From an uncultured Pseudomonadota bacterium (lineage in GTDB: Bacteria; Pseudomonadota; Alphaproteobacteria; Rs-D84), in contig CASETE010000011.1 in NCBI GenBank assembly GCA_949290785.1, positions 5,893-69,892 of the forward strand: a DNA stretch of 64,000 nt. Reading direction: 5' to 3'. The translations under genes and the position numbers were made by a program. Position 1 is the stretch's first letter. Every line of letters starts with the position of its first letter. This document shows, in pieces, positions 1,824 to 61,941 of this stretch. The notes beneath the pieces are model-generated. The model saw only the letters and a list, made by a program, of their open reading frames with translations, searched no databases and was not told the origin of the DNA.

Positions 1824-2120
1824 TTATGCTGCTAATCTCCTTGGTATTCTTTTTTTTAATAAATACATTTTTGCAGAAATGATTTGTCCCAATTGCGGTT
1901 CTTTTTTTGAAAACCCCGCAAGAATTATATGAACAATACATACAGATATTAAAAAGAATAGCGGATTTATGTTAGAGCTTGCCCCATTTATGATTAAACC
2001 TATTACAAAAACAATTATGAATATAATGAATTGAACAGCAAAATTTAAAACGGCAACGGAATAAGGCACGTAAAAAATACGCGCTGGATTTGCTAATGCT
2101 TTTAATACTTGTTGCTTCAT
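1824..2120 (-). CDS. virB3: Type IV secretion system protein VirB3 (small inner-membrane protein)
   Basis: 98 aa, two hydrophobic segments. Immediately upstream of and overlapping virB4; size and topology typical of VirB3. Confidence 0.65.
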   Translation of the reverse strand: MKQQVLKALANPARIFYVPYSVAVLNFAVQFIIFIIVFVIGLIINGASSNINPLFFLISVCIVHIILAGFSKKEPQLGQIISAKMYLLKKRIPRRLAA

Positions 2121-2386
2121 TTTGAGATAAATCCTCTCTCGCTGTTCAAATTATAACAATTTCAACAGTTTTCAACAAGCATAAAAAACAAACATATTTT
2201 TTTGTTAAAAATGTTTAAAAAGTATATATTTTTTAACTGTTAATTATTTTTCTATTTTTTTAACACTTTTTTAAAAAATCCTAGAAAACCGGGAAAAAAT
2301 TGTTAAAAACTTGTTAATAAATAAATAAAAACCGTTTTCAACATATTTAACAGGCATAACAAAAACAACAAAAATATTAATAAATA

Positions 2387-2414
2387 TTTGATTTTTTAGA
2401 AAAAGCGTTTATAA
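2387..2414 (+). promoter_or_regulatory. sigma70-like promoter (TTGATT-16-TATAAT) upstream of the bL36 paralog
   Basis: Near-consensus -35/-10 hexamers about 25 nt upstream of the 2439 ATG. Confidence 0.35.
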
Positions 2415-2438
2415 TGACCAAGCAAAAAGGATTTAGAT

Positions 2439-2573
2439 ATGAAATTTTTAAGTTCATTAAAGGCTTGGAAAAAACGCGGTAATATAAAACAAATTCGTCG
2501 TGGTAAACAAGTTATTTTAATTGACCCAAGTAATCCTAAATTAAAGGCAAAACAGGGTTTTAAAAGAAAATAA
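2439..2573 (+). CDS. rpmJ: 50S ribosomal protein bL36, type 2 (C-minus, YkgO-like paralog), 44 aa
   Basis: Not in ORF track (<60 aa). Translation MKFLSSLKAWKKRGNIKQIRRGKQVILIDPSNPKLKAKQGFKRK aligns closely with E. coli YkgO/RpmJ2 ([46 protein letters not shown]). Confidence 0.7.
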   Translation: MKFLSSLKAWKKRGNIKQIRRGKQVILIDPSNPKLKAKQGFKRK

Positions 2574-2594
2574 ATATCATCTGGCTTTGTACAG

Positions 2595-2622
2595 GTTATT
2601 TTTAAGGTCCGATAAAATCGGA
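2595..2622. terminator. Intrinsic terminator hairpin (GTCCGAT-AAAA-ATCGGAC + T run); bidirectional between rpmJ and the SufD-like gene
   Basis: Perfect 7 bp stem followed by a T9 run directly after the rpmJ stop. Confidence 0.5.
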
Positions 2623-2629
2623 CTTTTTT

Positions 2630-3310
2630 TTAAAATAAAGAAAAATCGTTTAAAAAAGATTCTTTCATTACATTAATTGCTTCTTGTTGTGATAATCCTG
2701 ATTCACGCAAGTATTGTATTTGTATATTTGTCGGTTGAAAAATAGAAGCGCTATGGTCTGCTGTATCTGGAATAGCAGATATCTTTTGTGCCGGTGTAAA
2801 CTGCATTTTTGCTGTTTTGTCTGCTAATGCAGAAAACGTTATATTTGATTTTGTATTTATACAATTTTTATCAATAATTGCGGTTCCCGACATTTTTGAA
2901 ATAGAGTGTTCATTTGCTAATAATTTCGTATTTAAGAAAACTGTTGTGTCTGATTGCGTATGGTTTGCTGTACAGTTAAAATCCATATTGCTATTATTTT
3001 CTAGCATTATTTGGCCACGTAATTCAGAAAATTTGCCGGTGTTTTTGATAAAAATATTTAAAAAAGCCGGTTTTTTATTTTTTATTCTTAGACTCAGAAA
3101 CACCTTTTGATTTTCGGCAGATATGTTTATATCAAGGTCATTTTGATTTTCGATTTCGCCGACGTATATAATATGTATTGGTAATTTATATTTTTTTTCT
3201 ATATTTGTGCTTTTTATGGTTGATAATTCCGGACAAAAGCATCCATCTTGGAAAACAATAGTTTCCGCTGGAAAGGTTTTTATATTGAATTTTTCCCACA
3301 TGTATGACAT
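2630..3310 (-). CDS. SufD/SufB-family Fe-S cluster assembly protein, short orphan form
   Basis: C-terminal QIQYLRESGLSQQEAINVMKESF matches the conserved SufB/SufD C-terminal motif (EEQLFYLRSRGI..EA..MI..F). Only ~226 aa and no adjacent sufBC. Start chosen at MSYMWEKF to avoid overlapping divergent ychF. Confidence 0.4.
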   Translation of the reverse strand: MSYMWEKFNIKTFPAETIVFQDGCFCPELSTIKSTNIEKKYKLPIHIIYVGEIENQNDLDINISAENQKVFLSLRIKNKKPAFLNIFIKNTGKFSELRGQIMLENNSNMDFNCTANHTQSDTTVFLNTKLLANEHSISKMSGTAIIDKNCINTKSNITFSALADKTAKMQFTPAQKISAIPDTADHSASIFQPTNIQIQYLRESGLSQQEAINVMKESFLNDFSLF

Positions 3311-4429: not shown

Positions 4430-5314
4430 ATGATACATGTTCTATTTTCAGCGTCAAAAAATATAACCAGTTGGTTATCTGTTGCGATTATAAGTATGGC
4501 CGAAAATACGAACAGTAAAGTAACACTGCATATTATAGATAACGGCATAACGAATCTTGATAGAAAAATAATAGAAGATATATGTGTAAAATATAAGCAC
4601 CTTAGTAAACCTAAATGGTATTTTATTGATATAAACAAAGAGTTTTCTGGTTGTGCAAGTTGGACTGGTGGGCTTGATACATGGTCTCGGTATCTTGCCC
4701 CAAATTTGATAAAAAACATTGATAAAATAATTTATCTAGATAGTGACATTATTTTTACAGGCGACATACAAAGAATATGGGATATTGATTTAGAAGGTTT
4801 TCCGCTGGCGGTTGTTCCGGAAATATTTATGGGCGCGGATTATATGACTGATAAATTAAAATATTACAGAGATGTACTTCATTTCTCGCAAAAGAATTTA
4901 TCTTTTTCTGTCAGTACAATCATATTTGATTTAAAAAAATGGCGTTCGGAAAAATATACAGAAAAGTTAAAACAAATAGGTATTAAATATGGCGAAGAAA
5001 TTGCTGGGGCCCCAGATCAATATGCAATGAATATGTTATTTGCTGATAATTATAAAGCGATTGATACCGCATTGGTACCTACTACTTTTGATGTGGAATG
5101 GTTTGAATCTGTTCAAAAAGACAGGTTTTCAGAAATGCAAAATCAAATGGTGATAAGACAATTTAATATATTAAAGCCGTGGTCTGAATACTTAATAAAC
5201 AATCGTCCGATGTTACATTTTGAGTTATTTTGGTATTATGCGCAAAAAACGCCCTTTGCAGATTATTTCAAGGTTAAATTTATGATATCAATGTATGAAA
5301 AGTTAAAAAAATAA
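4430..5314 (+). CDS. Glycosyltransferase family 8 (RfaJ/WaaJ-like, retaining GT-A)
   Basis: DxD motif in YLDSDIIFTGDIQRIWDIDL; overall GT8 layout; 294 aa. Confidence 0.65.
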   Translation: MIHVLFSASKNITSWLSVAIISMAENTNSKVTLHIIDNGITNLDRKIIEDICVKYKHLSKPKWYFIDINKEFSGCASWTGGLDTWSRYLAPNLIKNIDKIIYLDSDIIFTGDIQRIWDIDLEGFPLAVVPEIFMGADYMTDKLKYYRDVLHFSQKNLSFSVSTIIFDLKKWRSEKYTEKLKQIGIKYGEEIAGAPDQYAMNMLFADNYKAIDTALVPTTFDVEWFESVQKDRFSEMQNQMVIRQFNILKPWSEYLINNRPMLHFELFWYYAQKTPFADYFKVKFMISMYEKLKK

Positions 5315-6984: not shown

Positions 6985-9254
6985 TATTTTTTTACGGTCT
7001 TTTTAAATTTAGTTGACGGTTTTTTGTTATTTATCAGTTCGATTGCTGTTTCTAAATCTGGTTGTGATTTCACGGATACATTTACTTTATTAGAAGATAT
7101 ATATGCACCATATCGTCCTGTTGGGTAATAATAAATCATTTTATCTGTTTCAGGGTTTTTACCAATTTCAACAGGTTCAGACTTTTTTGATTCGTTTTTT
7201 AATAGTTCTTTCGCTATATCCAAAGTAATTGTTTCAGACGTATATTTTTTTGCGGCGACATTTTTTGTACCGTCTGTAACATAAGGTCCAAAACGCCCAA
7301 TACGGAAAGAAATACCATCACCTAATTCTATTGAATTAGATTTTTGTTTTTCGGTTTTCGTGTCATCTGATTTTACGTCTGCTTCTGCGTCTGTAATATC
7401 TAGTTTTTTCGTATAATTACATTTCGGATAATTTACGCATCCTATAAAAGGCCCGAACTTTGATAATTTAATTCCTAAATCCCCACCGCATTTTGGACAT
7501 TTATTGTTACCAATATATAGTAAATGTTCGTGCATCAGTTCATTTATCGCATCAATAATTTCCGCGGTTTTAACGTCTTTTGCACCGTTAATCATATTTT
7601 CTGTCGGAGACCAGAAATCCCGCAAAGCATCTAATTTGTTTTGTTTTCCGTTTGACACGTCGTCCAATGTGTCTTCTGTTTTTGCGGTAAAGTTTACATC
7701 AACCAGGTCTTTAAAATATTTAGACAGATAAGAAGCGATAACCCAACCACCTGATGTAGGATGAAATCTACGTTGTTTATCTTGCTGGACATATTTTCTG
7801 TCTACGATAGTTGACATAATAGTCGCATAAGTAGACGGGCGCCCTATTCCAAGTTCTTCCAGTTTTTTTACCAGTGATGCTTCTGTATATCTTGCCGGTG
7901 GTTGCGTAAAGTGTTGCTCGGGCTCCAGTCTTGTTATAAGGATATCGTCACCGACAGACAACGGCGGTAATTTAGATTCATTATTTTCTTCTGCATCATC
8001 TTTATCTTCGGTGTATACACGCATAAAGCCATCAAAAGTTCTGGTTGTACCAACAGCGTGAAAAACGGCACGTTTATTTTCCGTTTCCATATCTGCGGAT
8101 ACACTATCAAATTCAGCGTTCGTCATTTGACAGGCAATTGTTCTTTTCCAGATTAAGTCATATAATTTTGCTTCATCACCGGACAGTTTGTGTTCGTTTG
8201 TATCAAAGTGAGTTGGTCTAATTGCTTCGTGTGCTTCCTGTGCGTTTTTGGATTTAGTCACATATACGTTTGGTGACTTGGGAACAAATTTTTCGCCATA
8301 CGCATTTTGAATATAGTTACGAATATCGTTTACCGCTTCTGCCGACAAGTTAGTCGCATCAGTACGCATGTAAGTAATCATACCTTGTTCGTATAATTTT
8401 TGCGCTGTTGCCATCGTGCGTTTTGAAGAAAAATAAAGTTTTCTTGCGGCTTCTTGTTGCAGCGTACTTGTCGTGAATGGCGCCGCCGCCCGCCGAGAAG
8501 TCTTCTTTTTATCCAAAGAAATAACTTTTGCATTTATTATGGGGCTGCCTATTCCAGATAAAATATCGTCTACCTGCGCTTTATTTTCTATTGTCATCTT
8601 TTCAATTTTTTTTGAATCAAATTGAGAAAGATTGGCGGAAAAGACAAAATCGTTTTTATCGCATTCGGCAGATATAGACCAGTATTCAACAGGTTTGAAC
8701 GCTTCTATTTCGCGTTCTCTATCAACGACCAATTTAACAGCGACTGATTGTACGCGCCCGGCAGATTTACCAAGATTTCTGCGCCATAGCAACGGTGATA
8801 TGCTAAAACCAATCAAATAATCTAATGCGCGACGAACAAGATACGCATCAACTAAATCGTTATCTATTTCGCGCGGATGTGCAATTGCTTCTTGTACGGC
8901 TTTTTTCGTAATTTCATGGAAAGCAACACGGTAAACTTTTTTACCGTCTAAAACCTTTTTTGATTTTAAAATATCAAGAATGTGCCATGCAATGGCTTCT
9001 CCTTCTCTATCCGGGTCAGAAGCCAAATAAACAGCATCTGCCTTTTTTATTTCATCTGTAATAAGTTTTATTTGCTTTTCTTTCCCGGGCATTATCTGCC
9101 AGCGCATAGCAAAATCTTTATCTGGGTCAACGCTGCCGTTTTCCGGAACAAGATCGCGAACATGTCCAACAGAAGCAATAACACGCCAGCCACTGCCAAG
9201 GTATTTTTCAATTGTTTTTGCTTTTGAAGGTGATTCCACGATAAGTAAATTCAT
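6984..9254 (-). CDS. topA: DNA topoisomerase I
   Basis: TOPRIM N-terminus MNLLIVESPSKAKTIEKYLG; C-terminal Zn-ribbon repeats; 756 aa. Confidence 0.9.
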   Translation of the reverse strand: MNLLIVESPSKAKTIEKYLGSGWRVIASVGHVRDLVPENGSVDPDKDFAMRWQIMPGKEKQIKLITDEIKKADAVYLASDPDREGEAIAWHILDILKSKKVLDGKKVYRVAFHEITKKAVQEAIAHPREIDNDLVDAYLVRRALDYLIGFSISPLLWRRNLGKSAGRVQSVAVKLVVDREREIEAFKPVEYWSISAECDKNDFVFSANLSQFDSKKIEKMTIENKAQVDDILSGIGSPIINAKVISLDKKKTSRRAAAPFTTSTLQQEAARKLYFSSKRTMATAQKLYEQGMITYMRTDATNLSAEAVNDIRNYIQNAYGEKFVPKSPNVYVTKSKNAQEAHEAIRPTHFDTNEHKLSGDEAKLYDLIWKRTIACQMTNAEFDSVSADMETENKRAVFHAVGTTRTFDGFMRVYTEDKDDAEENNESKLPPLSVGDDILITRLEPEQHFTQPPARYTEASLVKKLEELGIGRPSTYATIMSTIVDRKYVQQDKQRRFHPTSGGWVIASYLSKYFKDLVDVNFTAKTEDTLDDVSNGKQNKLDALRDFWSPTENMINGAKDVKTAEIIDAINELMHEHLLYIGNNKCPKCGGDLGIKLSKFGPFIGCVNYPKCNYTKKLDITDAEADVKSDDTKTEKQKSNSIELGDGISFRIGRFGPYVTDGTKNVAAKKYTSETITLDIAKELLKNESKKSEPVEIGKNPETDKMIYYYPTGRYGAYISSNKVNVSVKSQPDLETAIELINNKKPSTKFKKTVKK

Positions 9255-9257
9255 TTT

Positions 9258-10403
9258 TTAACTTCCTTTTGCAGACAATTGTTGATCTTTATGAATGTGC
9301 GCATTTTGGCATAGCCCGAAACCAAACATCAGCGATAAAAGACTGCTGCCACCAAAAGACATCAAAGGCAGTGGCACACCAACAGTTGGCATCAAACCCA
9401 AAACCATAGAGATATTTATAAAATAATAAATGAAAAAGTTCAACATAAAACCAAAACATACCAGTTGACCGAACCTATTCCTGCACGTTTTTGCGCACCA
9501 AAACAGAACGATTATTATGATTGTATATAACATAAGTAACGAAAAGGCGCCTACGAAACCAAATTCTTCACCAAGCATGGTAAATATAAAATCGGTTTGT
9601 TTTTCGGGTAAGAAAGATTGTTGCGATTGCGTTCCTGACATATATCCCTTGCCCAACATACCGCCGCTGCCAAAAGCAATTTTTGCTTGGTTTATTTGAT
9701 ATCCTGCACCTTGTGCATCGTGGTCTGGGTTTACGAAAGTTATAATTCTGTCGCGTTGATAGTCGTGCAAACCGCCGTACCAAACCAAAGGTGTAGCCAT
9801 TAACCCAAGTATAATGGCGATGATGAACCATTTTTTTTGCGCGCCAACTATATAAAACATGCCGACAGTAATCATACCAAGTGATAAAGCAGTGCCTAAA
9901 TCCGGTTGTAAAACGATTAATAAAAACGGCACCAACAACATAGTTGCCGGTACGGTATAATTTTTAATTTGTGATAATTCTACGGAATTCATCCAAGCAA
10001 AGTAACGCGCCAAAGCTAAAACAAGAGCAATTTTAATTAATTCTGATGGTTGAATATGAAAGAAACCTAGATTAAGCCAACGTTGTGCGCCCATACCAGT
10101 ATGCCCTACGAACGTTACAAGTACAATCATTATAAAGGCGATTATATAAATCCAGTATGCGGATTTTATCCATGTCTTTATATTAATAAAGGCTGCAAAA
10201 AAGAATACGCCGAACCCAAGTAAAATTTTAATAAGTTGCGACATCGCAAAGGGATACCAAGATCCCCCACCGGCTGAATATAAAACAACGATAGAAATAG
10301 CCAGAACTAAACACATAGGAATAAATAAAGCCCATGAAAAACGGCTAAGTTTTTCTGGAAATGTCATCATATTAGCATTAGAAACGCGCGTTTGGCGTGC
10401 CAT
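9258..10403 (-). CDS. mrdB: Peptidoglycan glycosyltransferase RodA (SEDS family)
   Basis: Multi-TM FtsW/RodA-family protein immediately downstream of PBP2 in the mre-mrd operon. Confidence 0.8.
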   Translation of the reverse strand: MARQTRVSNANMMTFPEKLSRFSWALFIPMCLVLAISIVVLYSAGGGSWYPFAMSQLIKILLGFGVFFFAAFINIKTWIKSAYWIYIIAFIMIVLVTFVGHTGMGAQRWLNLGFFHIQPSELIKIALVLALARYFAWMNSVELSQIKNYTVPATMLLVPFLLIVLQPDLGTALSLGMITVGMFYIVGAQKKWFIIAIILGLMATPLVWYGGLHDYQRDRIITFVNPDHDAQGAGYQINQAKIAFGSGGMLGKGYMSGTQSQQSFLPEKQTDFIFTMLGEEFGFVGAFSLLMLYTIIIIVLFWCAKTCRNRFGQLVCFGFMLNFFIYYFINISMVLGLMPTVGVPLPLMSFGGSSLLSLMFGFGLCQNAHIHKDQQLSAKGS

Positions 10404-12178
10404 TATTTATCCTTTTTTAAAAGTGCGCGCATTGTTGCCGCAACTGTTCGTGCCGCTGGACCGCTGCCACCAGAATGTTCTGTTATTGCACAAACAGCGT
10501 ACTTTGGTTTGCTTGTTGGTGCGTATCCGACAAATAAACCGTGATTGCGCATATTCCACTTTAATTGCTCGTTAGTCAAAACGCCGCTAAGACGTTCTGC
10601 GCGGGAAATGCTACGAACTTGTGACGTTCCGGTTTTGCCGCCCATTTTTGCACCGCTTACATTGATAGCGCTTCCCGCGGCTGTTCCACCGGTCTTGGTT
10701 ACTTGTTCCAAACCGTTTAATACAGATTTGATATTTTTGTAATTCAAACCAAGATTCGCAAATTGTGGCTTTTCTTCTGTTAAAATAAGGCGGGGCATAA
10801 CGACTTTATTTGATACCGTTCGTGCCATCATAACGGCTAACTGTAAACAGTTCGTTAAAGTAAAACCCTGACCTATTCCAGATATAATCGTGTCGCCGTG
10901 AACCCACCTGTAACCGATTTGTTTTTCTTTCCAATATCTGTCTGGTATAACGCCCGGCATTTCACGCGATAATATACCATCCATATATTTTTGCGTAAAC
11001 CCAAGTTTAATGGCCATTTGTTTAATAGAGTCAATACCTATTCTTAACGCGACTTGATAAAAATATATATCGCAAGAATGTTTTAATGCACCAGCCAAAT
11101 CAACCCATCCATGACCTTCTTCTTCCCAGCAATGATATCTTCTGTCGCCATAATCCCAATATCCTGGGCAGAATATTTTTTCATTTGGTGTTATCGCGCC
11201 GGATTCTAGTGCCGCCAATGCAACGACTATTTTGAATGTAGAGCCAGGTGGATACAATCCTTCTATACTTTTATTCATAAAAGGTTTCATATAATCTTCG
11301 CGCAGTGATGCGATATATTCTTCGCCGTCATCAGAACCAAATTTATTTGGGTCAAAGCTTGGGGCGGATACCATTGCCAATATATCACCGGTTTCTATAT
11401 CCAAAGCAACGCCACATCCAGAACGATATGATATCAAAGAATCATACATTGCCTTTTGTGCGTCGTCGTTTATAGTCGTTTTTAAATCGCTGCCGATTAT
11501 TGGTTGTTTAAATTGTGTTTTATCTTCACCGGTTATTCTGCCTACTGCGTTTGTAATCATAACGGTTTGTCCGGGCGTACCCGCTAACATATCGTTATAT
11601 CTTTTTTCAAGGCCGGTGATACCCGTCGTTAAAAAGGGTGCATTTGCTACTGGTTTTTCTGGTGCACCTACGTAGCCAAATATTTGTGCGCCCGCAGGCC
11701 CCATTTCATAAAGCCTTGAAAAACCGCTTCGTACGTGAAGCCCAGGTAAATTTTGCGCCTGTAATTTTGCCAGTTTATTCCAATCTGTGTTTTCGCTAAC
11801 AAGTACAGGTTGAAATTTTAATTGCTTTTTTATTTTTTTATAAATGTTATTAACGCGCTTATTATTCAGGTTTAATTCTTTTGCAACAATACTGATTAAT
11901 TCATCAAGATTTTCCGTTTCTTCTGGTATTATATAAATTCTGTATATAGATGTATCCCTGGAAATAGGCGTACCAGAATTAGATAATATTTTACCGCGTT
12001 CGGGCATATTTATTTGAATTCTGAAAGAGTTGTTTTCGCTTTTTTTTGTATATTCACGATAGTTGAAAAGTTGCATCTGTAACATACGTAAAACAAGTGC
12101 AGATGTTAAAACCGCGCCTGCGGTTAAGAACAAAGCGCTTCTTCTATCAAAAAGACGTGCAACTTCTTTATCTATCAT
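10403..12178 (-). CDS. mrdA: Penicillin-binding protein 2 (transpeptidase)
   Basis: N-terminal TM and PBP dimerisation region plus transpeptidase motifs (STFK, SGN/KTG); 591 aa; between mreD and rodA. Confidence 0.85.
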   Translation of the reverse strand: MIDKEVARLFDRRSALFLTAGAVLTSALVLRMLQMQLFNYREYTKKSENNSFRIQINMPERGKILSNSGTPISRDTSIYRIYIIPEETENLDELISIVAKELNLNNKRVNNIYKKIKKQLKFQPVLVSENTDWNKLAKLQAQNLPGLHVRSGFSRLYEMGPAGAQIFGYVGAPEKPVANAPFLTTGITGLEKRYNDMLAGTPGQTVMITNAVGRITGEDKTQFKQPIIGSDLKTTINDDAQKAMYDSLISYRSGCGVALDIETGDILAMVSAPSFDPNKFGSDDGEEYIASLREDYMKPFMNKSIEGLYPPGSTFKIVVALAALESGAITPNEKIFCPGYWDYGDRRYHCWEEEGHGWVDLAGALKHSCDIYFYQVALRIGIDSIKQMAIKLGFTQKYMDGILSREMPGVIPDRYWKEKQIGYRWVHGDTIISGIGQGFTLTNCLQLAVMMARTVSNKVVMPRLILTEEKPQFANLGLNYKNIKSVLNGLEQVTKTGGTAAGSAINVSGAKMGGKTGTSQVRSISRAERLSGVLTNEQLKWNMRNHGLFVGYAPTSKPKYAVCAITEHSGGSGPAARTVAATMRALLKKDK

Positions 12179-12626
12179 TGCACACCCTTTTTATTAAAGC
12201 AGTTACAGGTATGTAAAGCGTTGATACCCATGCAAACGTCCATCCAGCGCGTATCAGGTTTGATACATTAAAGTTCATAAAAGATAATATGAGCAGTGAT
12301 ATACCAAAAAATACCATAAATATTTTTAGCGCGTTATTATCTTGTTTTGATAAATCAATGATACTTTGAAATCCGATTATTGCATAAAACAGGCAATACA
12401 TAACAGTCCAAAACACTAACGAATCAAATCTGTAATCTATTAAAAAACAAAAAATAGCGGCAAATGGTGCGAACCAAGGTATAGGGCGTACAAACGAACA
12501 ATAAAATATGGGTATTATTGCCAGGATGCCTGCGGGATTCCAGAACGCAGCAGATAATCGCCATAACACTATTACGGCGATAAAAGGAAACGCGTCGCGC
12601 AGAAAATTTATTATTTTATTTTTCAT
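12168..12626 (-). CDS. mreD: Rod shape-determining protein MreD
   Basis: 152 aa polytopic membrane protein between mreC and mrdA. Confidence 0.6.
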   Translation of the reverse strand: MKNKIINFLRDAFPFIAVIVLWRLSAAFWNPAGILAIIPIFYCSFVRPIPWFAPFAAIFCFLIDYRFDSLVFWTVMYCLFYAIIGFQSIIDLSKQDNNALKIFMVFFGISLLILSFMNFNVSNLIRAGWTFAWVSTLYIPVTALIKRVCNDR

Positions 12627-13525
12627 TTATATTCGTCTTGTGTATCAAATTTTAATACAACCACACGTGATAATTGTTTTGGTGGTAATACACTTACATC
12701 TGTTTCGTTTTGCATTTCACCGACGGGTATTCCGTTTGGCAAGACGCCGCTTATATTACTTGTAACCAATTTAATGCCGCCAGAAGGTTGGAATTCGGGG
12801 TCGCTAAAAAATCCCATTGTTGGTGTGCTGGAACCGTTGCCTTGCATAAAACCATAAACTTCCGAGCCAACAACGCGAACCGGAATATTTGTGTTTGAAT
12901 CTGTCAAAGCGCGTACGCGTGAAAAATGCGGCGCAACATCAGTTATAATACCGACCAACACGCCATCAGTAGATGTTACAACCATACCTTTTTCTAAACC
13001 TTGCTTAATACCTTTGTTAATAAGGAAAGTACTATGATGAAAGGCGGAATCATCGTATATAACATCTGCAATCAAAGAATCACGTGGGTTAGATTCAATA
13101 ATATCTAGCTCGCGCGCAAGTTTTTGATTTTCTAATACGGCGATTTCACATGCGGTTTTGTTTTTAAGCGCCTCGTCCAATCTTACGCGCAGTTCTTCGT
13201 TTTCCGTTCGCAAAGTTGATAATTCTCTGATGTTATCAACCGCGTTACCAACGGCGCGAACCGGCCAAGTTATTATGTTACCGGTCCAATGTGCCACGGG
13301 CAGAATTATATGTGCCAAACCATTCATTATTTTATAATCGGGTTTAGCAATCATTATATATATAAATAGTACGGGCAAAATTGCTGCTGCAACGGCAGAT
13401 TTAATGATAGTATATAATCTTGAAGATAATTTATTTTGGCTCATATTAATGGGTAGTGTAAACTCTAAAAGAGCAACATTCAATAAAAACTTGATTTTTC
13501 TTTTTATTATGCCAGAATAACGCAT
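12623..13525 (-). CDS. mreC: Rod shape-determining protein MreC (true start may be the internal MSQNKL.. about 27 codons in)
   Basis: N-terminal TM, coiled-coil (RTENEELRVRLDEALKN), C-terminal beta domain; operon position. Confidence 0.75.
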   Translation of the reverse strand: MRYSGIIKRKIKFLLNVALLEFTLPINMSQNKLSSRLYTIIKSAVAAAILPVLFIYIMIAKPDYKIMNGLAHIILPVAHWTGNIITWPVRAVGNAVDNIRELSTLRTENEELRVRLDEALKNKTACEIAVLENQKLARELDIIESNPRDSLIADVIYDDSAFHHSTFLINKGIKQGLEKGMVVTSTDGVLVGIITDVAPHFSRVRALTDSNTNIPVRVVGSEVYGFMQGNGSSTPTMGFFSDPEFQPSGGIKLVTSNISGVLPNGIPVGEMQNETDVSVLPPKQLSRVVVLKFDTQDEYK

Positions 13526-57426: not shown

Positions 57427-57503
57427 CGCGCTGTTTCGGATGTTTAGCTCAGTTGATTAGAGCATCTCGTTTACACCGAGAGGGTCGGGGGTTTGAGTCC
57501 CTC
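57427..57503 (+). tRNA. tRNA-Val (anticodon UAC)
   Basis: GGATGTTTAGCTCAGTTGATTAGAGCATCTCGTTTACACCGAGAGGGTCGGGGGTTTGAGTCCCTCAACATCCACCA; encoded CCA. Confidence 0.85.
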
Positions 57504-57748
57504 AACATCCACCAAAAAATACAATCGCCGAATGGCGATTTTATTTTTTGCATGGGGATGTGGGACGAAAACCCCCGAAGTAAGGGGTTTGAACCGCAGA
57601 CGAGAGGCAGACGGCAGTATGCCGGTTCATGCGCAGCATGAACGAGTCAAGGTCGGCGAAGCCAATCCCTCAACATCCACCAAAAAATACAATCGCCGAA
57701 TGGCGATTTTATTTTTTGCATGGGGATGTGGGACGAAAACCCCCGAAT
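57487..57748 (+). repeat. Direct repeat (two ~95 bp copies 168 bp apart) comprising the last 17 nt of tRNA-Val(UAC) (TCCCTCAACATCCACCA), an intrinsic terminator (AATCGCC-GAAT-GGCGATT-T6) and a second hairpin (AAACCCCC-GAAGTAA-GGGGGTTT); separated by a 72 bp GC-rich segment
   Basis: Copies at 57487-57582 and 57655-57748 differ by a single indel. The second copy is preceded by GGTCGG, echoing the tRNA variable/T-stem region. Confidence 0.7.
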
Positions 57749-57892
57749 AAGGGGTTTGACAATGACTAGGCGAGATAAGCGTCAAGCATAATCGAGCCGT
57801 CAGGAATGCCCCGCAGCCGGCGTGACAACGCCGTGCGAGGGAACCGCACCGCATAAATACGCCCAAACGGGCGATTTTTATAAATATGATTT

Positions 57893-59545
57893 TTAACGGT
57901 TACGCGGTTTTCCTCTGTGTAAAAATTTAATAAGGTTTATTTTTTCAGTAATTTCAAATAGTTTTTTATAATAATTTTTCCGGTCTAACCCATTAATTAT
58001 GTTTTGTGAATTTTCCTGCGCATTCTGCTGTTTTGCATTTACTGCGGTATTCATCATAGTTTTTTTTGATATTTTGGTATTATTTTCTAAAAAGTTTTCA
58101 CCATAACTTTGTAAATTTGGCGCATAAAATTTATATAAAATTTTATTCTTGTACATAAAATTATTTTTTATATTTTGTAAACGCGGCGCATACAAAACAT
58201 CAAGGCTTTCGTTATAAAACAAAGCGTCGTTACCGAATGATTCAATTTTGTCTACGCGTAAATATTTAAGGCATTTGTTACAATACAAGAACGCATCGTC
58301 TGCAGATTGCAATTCGTTTAATTCCAATTGTTTTACCTTTTTATTACTTGCCATAAAGTTATATCCGACTTTTTGCAGTTTATCCGCTTTAAATTCGTAA
58401 ATATTTTTATTATGAGATACAAAATTGTTACCGACATGTTTTAAGTTGGCTAGGTGTAATTTTGTTAACCCGAGATTTTTATATAAAAAGTTATCGTCTA
58501 CGGATTCCAGGTTGTCCGCGTTGAAAGAAGACAAGTTAATATTATTTTGTAAAAATAGCGGACCAATTTCTTTTGTATTCGGCAGATTTAAAGCGATAAC
58601 GATTCCTTTTTGTGTTGTTATAACGGGCACGTCGTTCGCAAATAAAGTGACGGTATCGTCAGATTCATTGCGTTGCATACGTAGGGCTTTATCTTTTATT
58701 TCTTTGTTTATGACATTGATAAAACTGTCTTTGAAAACAAGATTATATGGTATATTAAATTTTTTGCATGCAATATTCTCAATATCTGAAAACTGTTTAG
58801 TTGTTATATCAAAAAGGAAATAATCTGCAATAAATTGTGTTTCTTTGTTTATGTCTTGTATTTGATTGTTGTAGACCCAAAAGTCAGGTCCTGAAAGTAT
58901 GCCGTAAAGATTATAATTAAATTTGACGATTTGACCGTTTACTGTTTTAAATCGCTCTGATGGTAATAAATTAGCATTATTACGCATCGGTATATTAAAA
59001 TATTTATGCAGGGAAGCCAACAGCCCCGGAATGATATTATCTGCAAACTTAATGGTATTACCATAACGATTATTAATATAAATATAGTTATTTGACTTGT
59101 CTATTTGTATAGATAATACAGATAGTCCATATTTGTCATATGGTTGCGGGGTTATAAAGTCTGCACGATTTAGTCTTTCTGCTTTGTCGTTTACTGCGTT
59201 AATAATATGATAGTCTTTATATTTATCGTTTTTTTTGAAAATGCCAAGTTCTTCTGATTTTGTAAAGTATTTTTGTATATAATTTTGTGTTTCTGGAGAA
59301 TCGGCATAAACTGCTTTGTATCCTGCTGATTGTAATAATTCAAAAGGCGACTTTTTTGCCAATTGTTCATCTATGCAAGATTTTTTTATGCTTTCTAAAT
59401 ATAGTAATATTGGTTTTGCGTCGTGTCCGGCATATTTTACTATTTTATCTAAATTTGGGATATTAAAAATACCGTTATCATAATCTTGAATGGAATCGAC
59501 AAACTCTTTGCCGTTTTGTTTTTTTATTATACTAAACATAGACAT
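57893..59545 (-). CDS. BspA-type leucine-rich-repeat protein (7 x ~22 aa repeats L..IG.NFL..N..L.......) with ~330 aa N-terminal domain of unknown function; no signal peptide; basic C-terminal tail
   Basis: Repeats ANLKHVGNNFVSHNKNIYEFKA / DKLQKVGYNFMASNKKVKQLEL / DKIESFGNDALFYNESLDVLYA / PRLQNIKNNFMYKNKILYKFYA etc. C-terminus ..KFLHRGKPRNR. Confidence 0.55.
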   Translation of the reverse strand: MSMFSIIKKQNGKEFVDSIQDYDNGIFNIPNLDKIVKYAGHDAKPILLYLESIKKSCIDEQLAKKSPFELLQSAGYKAVYADSPETQNYIQKYFTKSEELGIFKKNDKYKDYHIINAVNDKAERLNRADFITPQPYDKYGLSVLSIQIDKSNNYIYINNRYGNTIKFADNIIPGLLASLHKYFNIPMRNNANLLPSERFKTVNGQIVKFNYNLYGILSGPDFWVYNNQIQDINKETQFIADYFLFDITTKQFSDIENIACKKFNIPYNLVFKDSFINVINKEIKDKALRMQRNESDDTVTLFANDVPVITTQKGIVIALNLPNTKEIGPLFLQNNINLSSFNADNLESVDDNFLYKNLGLTKLHLANLKHVGNNFVSHNKNIYEFKADKLQKVGYNFMASNKKVKQLELNELQSADDAFLYCNKCLKYLRVDKIESFGNDALFYNESLDVLYAPRLQNIKNNFMYKNKILYKFYAPNLQSYGENFLENNTKISKKTMMNTAVNAKQQNAQENSQNIINGLDRKNYYKKLFEITEKINLIKFLHRGKPRNR

Positions 59546-59765
59546 TTTTTACCTCGCTATAAAAATAAACGAAAATTAAAAAATGTCAATTCATTATAGG
59601 AATTTTTGCATTTTAATAATTCAGAAATTTTTTATGTATATTCCGGGGTACAGTTAAATAGTTTTTTATATAGTATTGCAACAACCGCATGTTTATAATA
59701 AATCTGGAAAAAGAGGGCAGAATAAAGGCACAGAATAAAGCAAAACCCGCAAATGCGGGTTTTTA

Positions 59766-60020
59766 TTATTTTTGCTTTTGTTGCCAGCATATGGCGGCAT
59801 TTATATATTGTTTTGCACGATTTATATCAAATGTTTTTGTCCCTGGTGTTTTTAATTTCCCTTCTGCATCTATCCATATATCTGTGCGATTACCCGCAAC
59901 TTTTGCAATTTTATCAAGGTTTTGTATCACGTTTTCTGATGATATGCGTAATAAATCTATTGCTTTATTTACAGGTATATCTTCCCTGATGTCTGAACAG
60001 GTTATATAGCGTAATTGCAT
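59766..60020 (-). CDS. Hypothetical small protein (84 aa) downstream of rlmN, likely co-transcribed
   Basis: ATG 3 nt after the rlmN stop; followed by bidirectional terminator AAACCCGCAAATGCGGGTTT at ~59741-59765; no recognised domain. Confidence 0.3.
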   Translation of the reverse strand: MQLRYITCSDIREDIPVNKAIDLLRISSENVIQNLDKIAKVAGNRTDIWIDAEGKLKTPGTKTFDINRAKQYINAAICWQQKQK

Positions 60021-60022
60021 GT

Positions 60023-61123
60023 TTATTTCTTTTTGTTGTTCAGACGCAATTGCCCACAAGCACTCCCTATATCCTGCCCGCGTTCGCGTCTTATTCTGGT
60101 GTGTATTCCGTTTTTGATAAGAATGTCTTGAAATCTATGAACTGCATTTCCAGAAGGTGCGGCGAAATCACGTTCATCAACCGCATTCCATGGTATTAAG
60201 TTTACCATACAGTTTTTGCCTTTTAGTAAGGCGGATAATTTTTCTGCATATTCTGGTGTGCAGTTAAATAACTCTGTTTCGCCTTTATCGTTCTTTTTGC
60301 CAAGTAATATGTATTCTATCATCAGTTGACGGTTGTGCAGGTCTGAAAATTCAAAAGCGGCGTCCAAAACTTCAGACAATTTGTATTTGTTATTAATTGG
60401 CATAATCTGACTGCGTAATTCGTCTGTTGGCGCATGCAGGGATATTGCAAGGTTTATCGGTCTGCCCCAAGCAGTTAAATCTTTAATTCCTGGTACAATT
60501 CCGCAAGTAGAAACTGTAATTTTTCGCCAACTGATACCCATATCTTTATTTGCGCGTTCTATAAATCCGATAACGTTTTCTGTATTTTGTAATGGCTCAC
60601 CAGTTCCCATAACAACTATATGAGAAACATCATCGTTATTAGCGTCGCCGTTCGGATGTATATGTTTGTCAGAAAATTTGTCTGAGCGCAGTTCCCATTG
60701 CGCGACCAGAATCTGAGAGAAAATTTCGTTTACGGTCAAATTTCTTTTCAAACCTAACAAGGTACTTGCGCAGAACCTGCAGCCCATTGCGCATCCCGCC
60801 TGAGAACTGACGCAGACACTGTTGCCGTAACTTGTTCGCATCAGGACGCATTCTATTTGCTCACAGTCACTCAGTTCCAGCAAGAATTTAGTTGTTTGAT
60901 TATCAGAAGACTCCAATTTTTTTACGATTTTTACCGGCAGCGTCTGAGCTGATTCGTCTAAATCATGACGCAATTTTTCGGGCAAGTTTTTCATAGACCC
61001 AAAGTCTGGTGCGCCGCGTAATAGCCATTCACGAATTTGCTTCGCGCGAAACTTGGGCTGACCTAACTTTTGAATGAAATCCGTTAATTCCGCATCTGAA
61101 AAATTAAATAATATCGGCTTCAT
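60023..61123 (-). CDS. rlmN: Dual-specificity RNA methyltransferase RlmN (radical SAM)
   Basis: Radical SAM CxxxCxxC in VSSQAGCAMGCRFCAS plus downstream conserved Cys; 366 aa. Confidence 0.9.
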   Translation of the reverse strand: MKPILFNFSDAELTDFIQKLGQPKFRAKQIREWLLRGAPDFGSMKNLPEKLRHDLDESAQTLPVKIVKKLESSDNQTTKFLLELSDCEQIECVLMRTSYGNSVCVSSQAGCAMGCRFCASTLLGLKRNLTVNEIFSQILVAQWELRSDKFSDKHIHPNGDANNDDVSHIVVMGTGEPLQNTENVIGFIERANKDMGISWRKITVSTCGIVPGIKDLTAWGRPINLAISLHAPTDELRSQIMPINNKYKLSEVLDAAFEFSDLHNRQLMIEYILLGKKNDKGETELFNCTPEYAEKLSALLKGKNCMVNLIPWNAVDERDFAAPSGNAVHRFQDILIKNGIHTRIRRERGQDIGSACGQLRLNNKKK

Positions 61124-61941
61124 AATTTATACCTGTCGTCATTTATCACGATAACAGCCTTGCGTCGCAGTTGCTTTAATTGTTGGTCAGCCACAAACAT
61201 CGCCTGTTTGTACATCGCGTTTTGTTTGATTATATCGTCCAGTTTTCCGTATTCTGCAGTTTTCTTTGAACTACATACCAACAAAACCGATTTATCTACA
61301 ACCGGCGACCACGTTAATTTAGGCAGATTAATAACGCGTTCACGAATGTCTGCCGATAACTCATATTGCAGGGCAGTAAACTTTTGTGGGACCCCGCCTA
61401 AATCTTCGGCAATTTTTATTGCGTCGTCGCAGTTTTTAGGTTTGGTTAGTTTTGTTGCTACTTCTGCTGGAACGTCAACAAGTCTGACAATAGTCATTTC
61501 TATGGGCAGACCGTGTTCTTTTGCCAATTCGGCCTTTTCCGATGCAATTTCTTCTTTTGATACTTCTATTGTTGGCAAAACGGTTCTTGCAACTATTATT
61601 TGCCATGCAATTTCTGCTTTTAAGGCGGAACGCGCCATTGCTTTTTCAGACGCTGATAATTCGCCTAAATTCATTTTCTTTAATTCTTTTTCAACGTCTT
61701 TGTCATCAGGTACTGCGCCAAAATTAGATGCGTAGGCAAGTTTTACATTGTCATCTATTATGTTTTGCAGTGCTTGTCTACGATTGTCCGTAGAGGTTTG
61801 TCCTTGGCGCGCCATAAGCGTTGTACGTGCGGTGATGTCGGTGTCTGTTATAGGCTTGCCATTAACGCTGGCTACGACGCTGGCACCAAAAGCAGGTAAT
61901 ACAAACAAACAAGACGTCATTATAAAAAATATTTTTTTCAT
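61120..61941 (-). CDS. SurA N-terminal-domain periplasmic chaperone-like protein (no obvious parvulin domain)
   Basis: Signal peptide, helical SurA_N-like region, located immediately downstream of lptD as surA is in the lptD-surA operon; 273 aa. Confidence 0.5.
   Translation of the reverse strand: MKKIFFIMTSCLFVLPAFGASVVASVNGKPITDTDITARTTLMARQGQTSTDNRRQALQNIIDDNVKLAYASNFGAVPDDKDVEKELKKMNLGELSASEKAMARSALKAEIAWQIIVARTVLPTIEVSKEEIASEKAELAKEHGLPIEMTIVRLVDVPAEVATKLTKPKNCDDAIKIAEDLGGVPQKFTALQYELSADIRERVINLPKLTWSPVVDKSVLLVCSSKKTAEYGKLDDIIKQNAMYKQAMFVADQQLKQLRRKAVIVINDDRYKL

Follow-up and report, generated by a model that had tools for sequence, protein, structure and literature searches.

Leucine-rich repeat (LRR) proteins of the BspA/TpLRR class, e.g. 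Tannerella BspA, T. pallidum TpLRR (6mlx) and pneumococcal PcpA (4cp6), are, where characterised, exported by the Sec pathway and are surface or secreted proteins, or lipoproteins. The LRR proteins of gut Bacteroides, Faecalibacterium and Eubacterium represented by 4fs7, 4gt6 and 4h09 have the same repeat class. The subject here is a gene on the (-) strand, at 57893..59545, of a 64,000-nucleotide stretch of contig CASETE010000011.1 (positions 5,893 to 69,892; ‘the window’ below refers to this whole stretch) from an uncultured alphaproteobacterium of the Rs-D84 lineage. Its 550-residue product (‘the LRR protein’) carries repeats of that same class. Unlike the described proteins, neither it nor any of 120 homologues has a signal peptide, and it differs further in having a conserved, undescribed N-terminal domain, a regular 22-residue repeat unit and an LRR_5 score too low for recognition by Pfam. 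The interpretation favoured on balance, from sequence comparison, is that it belongs to a large modular family not described before, as a divergent and probably non-catalytic member, and that it would act by LRR-mediated binding.

A conserved head domain and its degenerate copy

The ~290-residue N-terminal domain defines a conserved, undescribed family of gut bacteria and gut phages. A first database search yielded 131 homologues, many with PF13306, and since the alignments extend over 85-91% of the LRR protein, the homologues share its N-terminal half and not just the repeats. They open with the motif IKKQNGExFAK or IKKxYGExF..LCR inside the first ~17 residues, and none of 120 has a hydrophobic N-terminus, signal peptide or lipobox. 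When a member consisting of the N-terminal domain only, P0066, was compared by phmmer with 1.84 billion cluster representatives, 933 matched at E <= 1e-3 and 852 at E <= 1e-10, each standing for a cluster at 50% identity. In these matches the domain is nearly always N-terminal. The modules on its C-terminal side comprise LRR_5, pentapeptide (P0051, P0285), WD40 (P0265), DUF3737 (P0239) and unrecognised repeats; the domain is called the ‘head’ below.

Neither the head of the LRR protein nor those of canonical members are matched by the libraries searched, Pfam-A (2025 copy), NCBIfam 20.0, PHROGs v4 and PADLOC. A phmmer search gives the head of the LRR protein no PDB sequence match, and the family profile matches PDB via the LRR part only. 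The initial annotation, made from the letters of the window, had called the domain unrecognised, and so it is by these measures. Because Foldseek with a model of the whole protein gave LRR proteins only, P0066 was itself modelled (predicted local distance difference test score, pLDDT, 90.6); with this model Foldseek finds nothing in PDB (best E 0.75) and nothing in BFVD. Two ideas about the core, that it is papain-like (a Cys where a helix begins, with His and Asp after it) or PD-(D/E)xK-like (alpha-beta-beta-beta-alpha with E...D...SxK), came from secondary structure only, gained no search support and were set aside. A separate observation is that one homologue, P0184 (645 residues), is extended at its N-terminus, where residues 36-170 resemble ART-PolyVal below the threshold (22.3 bits, the cut-off being 31.2). 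The literature searched makes no mention of the head domain, of its tail combinations, of its array expansion or of its viral occurrence. What is new, then, is the head together with its LRR, WD40 and pentapeptide pairings, its expansion in small genomes and its presence in gut viruses; the LRR class is known.

Among contigs representing one genome per species, at least 571 stretches encode the family. The best 80 of these are almost all from Ca. Enterousia or unnamed Alphaproteobacteria metagenome-assembled genomes (MAGs) of animal and human guts. Tandem arrays are a feature: there are seven copies in ~17 kb in L075, six each in L061 and L073, and five each in L062, L069 and L082. In these contigs, which are from Alphaproteobacteria/Rs-D84 MAGs, the paralogues stand back to back with no small open reading frames (ORFs) between them. 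A second subfamily is represented in a Bacilli MAG and in a genomic context of Firmicutes type, where the neighbours include DnaD and MucBP. The window itself sits within the first group, as its LptD shares 73% identity with the LptD of a Ca. Enterousia MAG, the cluster to which its PNPase belongs includes a protein of an ‘Alphaproteobacteria bacterium’ MAG, and it encodes MreB, RodA and PBP2, all three of which have been described for Rs-D84 (PMC12306168).

The domain is also carried by 43 IMG/VR viral contigs, in two forms. In the first, proteins of ~570 residues are encoded on contigs of 90-208 kb (L088-L119, L130), adjoining a DNA methyltransferase and PHROG families. In the second, giant ORFs of >3,400 residues (L120-L129, on contigs of 30-70 kb) have the head followed by LRR_5. 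All viral copies keep the full Cys/Arg/Arg/Asn/Asp/Thr set discussed below. No tblastn match to the domain was obtained in INPHARED/GenBank phages or in PLSDB plasmids. For the giant viral ORFs the notion of a ‘polyvalent protein’ was entertained and dropped, Pfam showing LRR_5 only and the polyvalent-protein paper being silent on LRRs.

The core of the head bears a near-invariant polar set, composed of Glu, Cys, two Arg, Asp, Tyr, Ser, Gln, Asn-Arg-Tyr-Asn-His, Asp and Thr. Departures from it were counted with a domain hidden Markov model (HMM) built without the query lineage, to which 357 unique domains were aligned and in which 32 key columns are at least 93% conserved. No deviation at all is present in 228 of the 357; in the query lineage 7-8 of the 32 columns deviate, 7 in the window copy, which places the lineage among the most deviant, its counts being equalled only by P0279 (8) and by the gene at 5141-6946 of L081 (7). 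The HMM aligns with the window copy over positions 3-288 at 237 bits, typical members scoring 300-414 bits. In HMM numbering the window copy has E14K, C105G, R112K, R139P, N166G and H167N, and it has lost the NPDxT loop by deletion, and with it D173 and T175. Of 344 unique domains from elsewhere in the family, 343 keep Cys105. The lone exception is the same L081 gene, where C105H is accompanied by R112Y, R139Y, N166A, H167G and D173G. That gene is one of a three-gene array whose other copies are intact, and its loss is independent of that in the window lineage. Two independent joint losses, with Y143, S146, R164 and Y165 retained, suggest that the conserved polar set constitutes one functional site.

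Loss of these residues has not been followed by loss of the gene, which is under purifying selection and is not decaying. The ratio of nonsynonymous to synonymous substitution rates (dN/dS) in comparison with the relative L001 (87% protein identity) is 0.175 overall, with 0.15 for the head, 0.16 for the LRRs and 0.28 for the tail; values for neighbouring housekeeping genes are 0.03-0.14. The reading frame is intact in 13 sequence variants, with 12 variants at >=94% identity, the C-terminal tail is conserved among the lineage variants of the protein, and the gene is syntenic in the relatives L001 and L087.

Repeats, gene and locus

Residues 318-493 of the LRR protein (58067..58594, (-) strand) form eight in-register units of 22 residues with the consensus xLxxxNLxxVGxNFLxxNxxLx, and in an AlphaFold model of the whole protein (pLDDT 89.6, with 113 homologues in the alignment) there is one beta-strand per 22 residues (340, 362 ... 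472). At the level of the family the repeats are of the BspA/TpLRR (LRR_5) class. The LRR protein does not itself match LRR_5 (PF13306) in Pfam at E <= 1, the gathering threshold being 27.7 bits, and the class follows from three other sources. Its homologues score 91.5 (P0004), 75.9 (P0008), 75.1 (P0024) and 111.9 bits (L120); the family profile matches the BspA-type LRR proteins 4fs7 (E 5.9e-20), 4h09 (3.4e-14) and 4gt6 (4.2e-11) in PDB; and the top Foldseek matches of the whole model are 4fs7, PcpA 4cp6, 4gt6 and TpLRR 6mlx. The repeat class proposed at the outset is thus borne out, with the count raised from seven to eight. A DASH_Ask1 match in the protein is below threshold, falls within the repeats and was discarded.

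The other parts are best described from the N-terminus. The head (residues 1-285; 58691..59545, (-) strand), a degenerate copy of the undescribed domain as judged by HMM and model, is predicted in the model to comprise a helical bundle (1-75), an alpha/beta core (76-193) and a beta-hairpin subdomain (199-254), all likewise encoded on the (-) strand. It is joined to the repeats by a linker with beta-hairpins that would cap the solenoid (286-317; 58595..58690, (-) strand; model strands 288-293, 298-303, 306-312 and 315-320). Beyond the repeats is a C-terminal tail (494-550; 57896..58066, (-) strand) modelled as two helices of low confidence (pLDDT 35-66) and ending in the basic HRGKPRNR. The protein as a whole has a mass of 63.9 kDa, an isoelectric point of 9.15 and contents of 12.5% Asn and 11.1% Lys. 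The best 12-residue Kyte-Doolittle mean in its first 40 residues is 0.66, the corresponding figure for an exported control protein encoded in the same window (61120-61941) being 2.68, and so the statement in the initial annotation that there is no signal peptide holds. Nor is there a membrane segment, the best 19-residue window reaching 1.17.

Translation of the LRR gene starts at an ATG and ends at a stop codon at 57893-57895; gene calls in relatives start at Met3, giving 548 residues. A Shine-Dalgarno sequence, GAGG (59552-59555, (-) strand), lies 6 nt before the ATG, and further upstream is a promoter-like, sigma-70-like site (59562..59589, (-) strand; TTGACA-16-TATTTT, 10/12 positions). 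This is no more than a resemblance to the consensus, and the region shows no excess of such sites over shuffles. A terminator-like GC hairpin (57860..57873, (-) strand) is 20 nt past the stop codon. On the other side, a terminator-like hairpin (59742..59763, (-) strand) located 3′ of the upstream rlmN and an 84-residue ORF would cut the gene off from upstream transcription. Terminator-like sites number 13 in the region, with 2.4 expected. From the promoter-like site and GAGG, and the hairpins on both sides, the gene appears to be a free-standing unit.

Proximity to a tRNA gene had been taken, together with an att-like duplication, as a sign of horizontal acquisition. The tRNA in question, tRNA-Val(TAC), is a neighbour outside the LRR gene at 57438..57514 on the (+) strand. 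The duplication is a direct repeat of 107 nt whose copies, 57483..57589 and 57651..57757 (both (+) strand), are 90% identical with starts 168 nt apart; the first takes in the 3′ end of the tRNA and the 75 nt that follow it, with a hairpin among them, and the second is between the tRNA and the LRR gene. As both copies are on the tRNA side, the gene lies outside the pair. The tRNA 3′ end does not recur past the LRR gene, and the neighbouring ORFs include no integrase. In the relative L001 the LRR gene occupies the same position; the repeat is present there only once, and a gene for a GT2 glycosyltransferase of 301 residues (11740-12645) stands between it and the LRR gene. Acquisition at the tRNA is thus not supported: the LRR gene belongs to the resident chromosome and was not brought in as cargo by the tRNA-linked duplication. 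Transfer of the gene at some much earlier time may nevertheless have occurred.

Where relatives have the GT2 gene, the window has, within 57590-57892, 272 bp that include the second copy of the tRNA 3′ end, and no GT2 remnant is detectable there. A GT2 gene also stands between tRNA-Val and the LRR gene in L002 (2021-2818). In L087 the gene order is that of the window, its contig ending just past the LRR gene. The GC-rich spacer at 57758-57873 has no L001 counterpart and no Rfam match, and the idea that it specifies a structured RNA was rejected. On the far side of the LRR gene, the 84-residue ORF that separates rlmN from the LRR gene (59769..60020, (-) strand) is what an internal deletion has left of a 247-residue gene, with the first ~24 and last ~56 residues of the product preserved. 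In L001 the intact 247-residue gene and the remnant are in tandem (8768-9511 and 9523-9777). Given the missing GT2 gene, the 84-residue remnant and the single repeat copy in L001 beside the same LRR gene, the locus is one where accessory genes have been lost around a gene that stayed, rather than an island carrying it.

The GC content of the LRR gene is 29.7%, that of the rest of the window 39.2%. Low GC is in part a trait of the family, since at 67 of 74 loci the family gene has a lower GC content than the sequence on either side, with a mean difference of 4 points, and it fits the Asn/Lys/Ile-rich composition. The lowest value in the window (0.267) is elsewhere, at 2001-3000 around a short SufBD-like ORF (239 residues), and a GT8 glycosyltransferase gene is found near that stretch (4430-5314).

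A probable binder, and where it might act

The proposal favoured here has the following form. Family proteins would be produced in the cytoplasm without a Sec signal, and each would consist of an enzyme-like or effector-like head plus an exchangeable repeat tail that chooses the target. Of the polar set, the window lineage no longer has Cys, both Arg, Asn, His, Asp and Thr, while purifying selection has maintained the residues that carry the structure, together with the fold and the solenoid of LRRs. This combination points to binding as the most likely role: the protein would be a pseudoenzyme, adaptor or decoy that meets the same kind of ligand as its active relatives. That ligand is presumably a protein bound by the LRRs. 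The Rs-D84 setting and the tandem arrays in related genomes suggest that the function is directed at another cell or at a genetic element, and the enzyme family from which the protein would derive is most likely one of conflict or partner interaction.

Three considerations weigh against this proposal. What speaks for calling the polar set an active site is its conservation and the two independent joint losses, and the label is provisional to that extent. The presence of the family in Firmicutes and on phage contigs may be accommodated by either site of action, the producer's own cytoplasm or another cell. Lastly, variable positions among the lineage variants show no excess on the concave face of the LRRs (6/32, compared with 24/144), so that the binding surface bears no mark of an arms race; diversifying selection there was considered and discarded on these figures.

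Why the family merits attention is clear from its distribution. Rs-D84/Enterousia bacteria have genomes of <1 Mb in which most biosynthesis is absent and are described as probably partner-dependent, and nothing is known of how they deal with those cells (PMC12306168). The group is widespread in animal and human guts, and a family that forms arrays in such small genomes, has a head absent from current libraries and is also carried by gut phages is an obvious candidate for the interface with the partner. It offers concrete proteins to express, to solve and to use as bait. The LRR gene itself is of more modest interest, being a conserved but degenerate member. There is a warning too: LRRs, a basic tail and a nearby tRNA are by themselves insufficient for calling an effector of a type IV secretion system (T4SS).

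Among the alternatives, the one that survives best, as a tentative possibility, is that the protein never leaves the producer's cytoplasm. It would be a sensor, adaptor or defence-related binder whose LRRs see a protein of an invading element or of the cell; active paralogues would execute the response, and the window copy would be a regulator or decoy. It accords with the failure to find an export signal of any kind, and homologues in Firmicutes and on phage-like contigs beside a DNA methyltransferase provide a setting of phage-host conflict. A conserved head, variable repeat tails and tandem arrays are also reminiscent, by analogy, of immune receptor families. However, no PADLOC defence model is matched, and neither an NTPase or signalling domain nor a conserved partner gene is present. 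Large arrays would, moreover, be an unusual investment in defence for genomes of <1 Mb.

The proposal made in the initial annotation was that the protein is a candidate T4SS effector, its basic tail being like a VirB/D4-type secretion signal. On this view the basic C-terminus would bring the protein to the chromosomal T4SS, which would inject it into a host or partner cell for its LRRs to bind a target there. Two of its premises are sound. The tail (...FLHRGKPRNR) is positively charged, with a net charge of +4 in the last 20 residues, and the window does contain a virB3-virB4 locus, virB3 (1824-2120, (-) strand) coding for 98 residues with no Pfam match and the partial virB4 (2-1822, (-) strand) matching Pfam CagE_TrbE_VirB at 54 bits. 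These two genes adjoin sufBD-like and ychF genes. Variants within the lineage keep the basic tail, and the absence of a Sec signal from the protein and from 120 homologues is as would be expected of such an effector; homologues with signal peptides had been named as grounds for abandoning the idea, and there are none. Relatives with strongly reduced genomes are thought to depend on partner cells (PMC12306168), and it is in such reduced genomes that the family is expanded. The organism has kept virB3-virB4, amid housekeeping genes, even though its T4SS genes are scattered on the chromosome. The scattering is evident from gene order on a longer contig of the same organism (L084 10001-13335), where virB3, virB4 (804 residues) and a 205-residue ORF are followed by unrelated genes. 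Expansion is a frequent property of effector families.

Specific support then runs out. The tail charge is indistinct: +4 or more in the last 20 residues is reached by 6 of 52 window ORFs, TopA, PBP2 and SurA-like proteins among them, and tails of +3 or more occur in 39-40% of homologues in both subfamilies, including the Firmicutes-context one. The pattern R-x7-R-x-R-x-R is absent from the sequence of the LRR protein. Linkage is lacking, as virB3-virB4 is ~56 kb away with housekeeping genes between, and no VirB4 homologue is encoded within 8 kb on either side at any of 76 family loci. In the sequence examined virB3 and virB4 are the only T4SS genes, with virD4 and virB6-11 not seen and hence no VirD4 coupling protein in the 64-kb window. 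The enzymatic head, furthermore, is degenerate in the window copy. Because the family extends to a Bacilli MAG, Firmicutes-type context and viral contigs, it is not confined to VirB/D4 lineages and is not a T4SS-specific substrate family. Effector status in the sense first proposed is therefore unlikely; export by some non-Sec route, T4SS included, is possible.

A broader conjecture, which we regard as doubtful, is that the head is a new, Cys-dependent enzymatic ‘warhead’ of gut phages and of partner-dependent gut bacteria with reduced genomes (Rs-D84/Enterousia and some Firmicutes), delivered otherwise than by Sec. The swappable LRR, WD40 and pentapeptide tails would aim the head at targets in another cell, and the route might be the scattered T4SS. 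If this were so, the arrays would be the main interaction arsenal of these bacteria, and the window gene a pseudoenzyme offshoot still binding the target.

The two remaining explanations are contradicted by the data. That the gene is decaying and functionless in a region of gene loss would account for the missing conserved residues of its head, for the decay of its neighbours (the remnant of the 247-residue gene and the absent GT2 gene) and for a GC content 9.5 points below the flanks, and is nonetheless very improbable given a dN/dS of 0.175, an intact frame in all 13 variants and a model that is confident across domains. A Sec-exported, BspA-like surface adhesin, for which the LRR_5/TpLRR class of the repeats is the argument, is hardly credible when signal peptide and lipobox are missing from the LRR protein and 120 of 120 homologues, the conserved domain begins inside the first ~17 residues, N-terminal hydrophobicity is so far below that of the exported control (0.66 vs 2.68), and no signal peptide is encoded upstream in the ORF, the promoter-like site and Shine-Dalgarno sequence fitting the ATG at 59545.

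Comparison with known systems

Of the systems to which the protein has been likened, VirB/D4 substrates such as Agrobacterium VirE2 and VirF, the Bartonella Beps and the effectors of Anaplasma and Ehrlichia resemble it in having a basic C-terminus and in being encoded in a genome with a T4SS ATPase gene. Unlike them, the LRR protein has no BID domain or Arg motif, and its charge is within the background of a Lys-rich proteome. Its gene is unlinked to a T4SS, and its homologues reach into Firmicutes-type context and viral contigs.

Another comparison is with translocated LRR-plus-enzyme effectors such as IpaH and SspH, in which LRRs are combined with the NEL ubiquitin ligase and its catalytic Cys. 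There, as in this family, a repeat module for the target and a Cys-bearing head are joined in a protein with no Sec signal. The likeness is one of analogy. Domain order is reversed in the family and the LRR class is another one; IpaH and SspH are substrates of a type III secretion system (T3SS), and the window copy is without the Cys. The head has no sequence or fold match to NEL or to any other PDB entry.

The eukaryotic F-box-LRR and F-box-WD40 proteins provide an architectural analogy only. The head of the present family has ~290 residues and an enzyme-like polar set, and shows no F-box similarity in Pfam. What the two have in common is the principle of construction, in which a single kind of head is coupled to alternative repeat tails.

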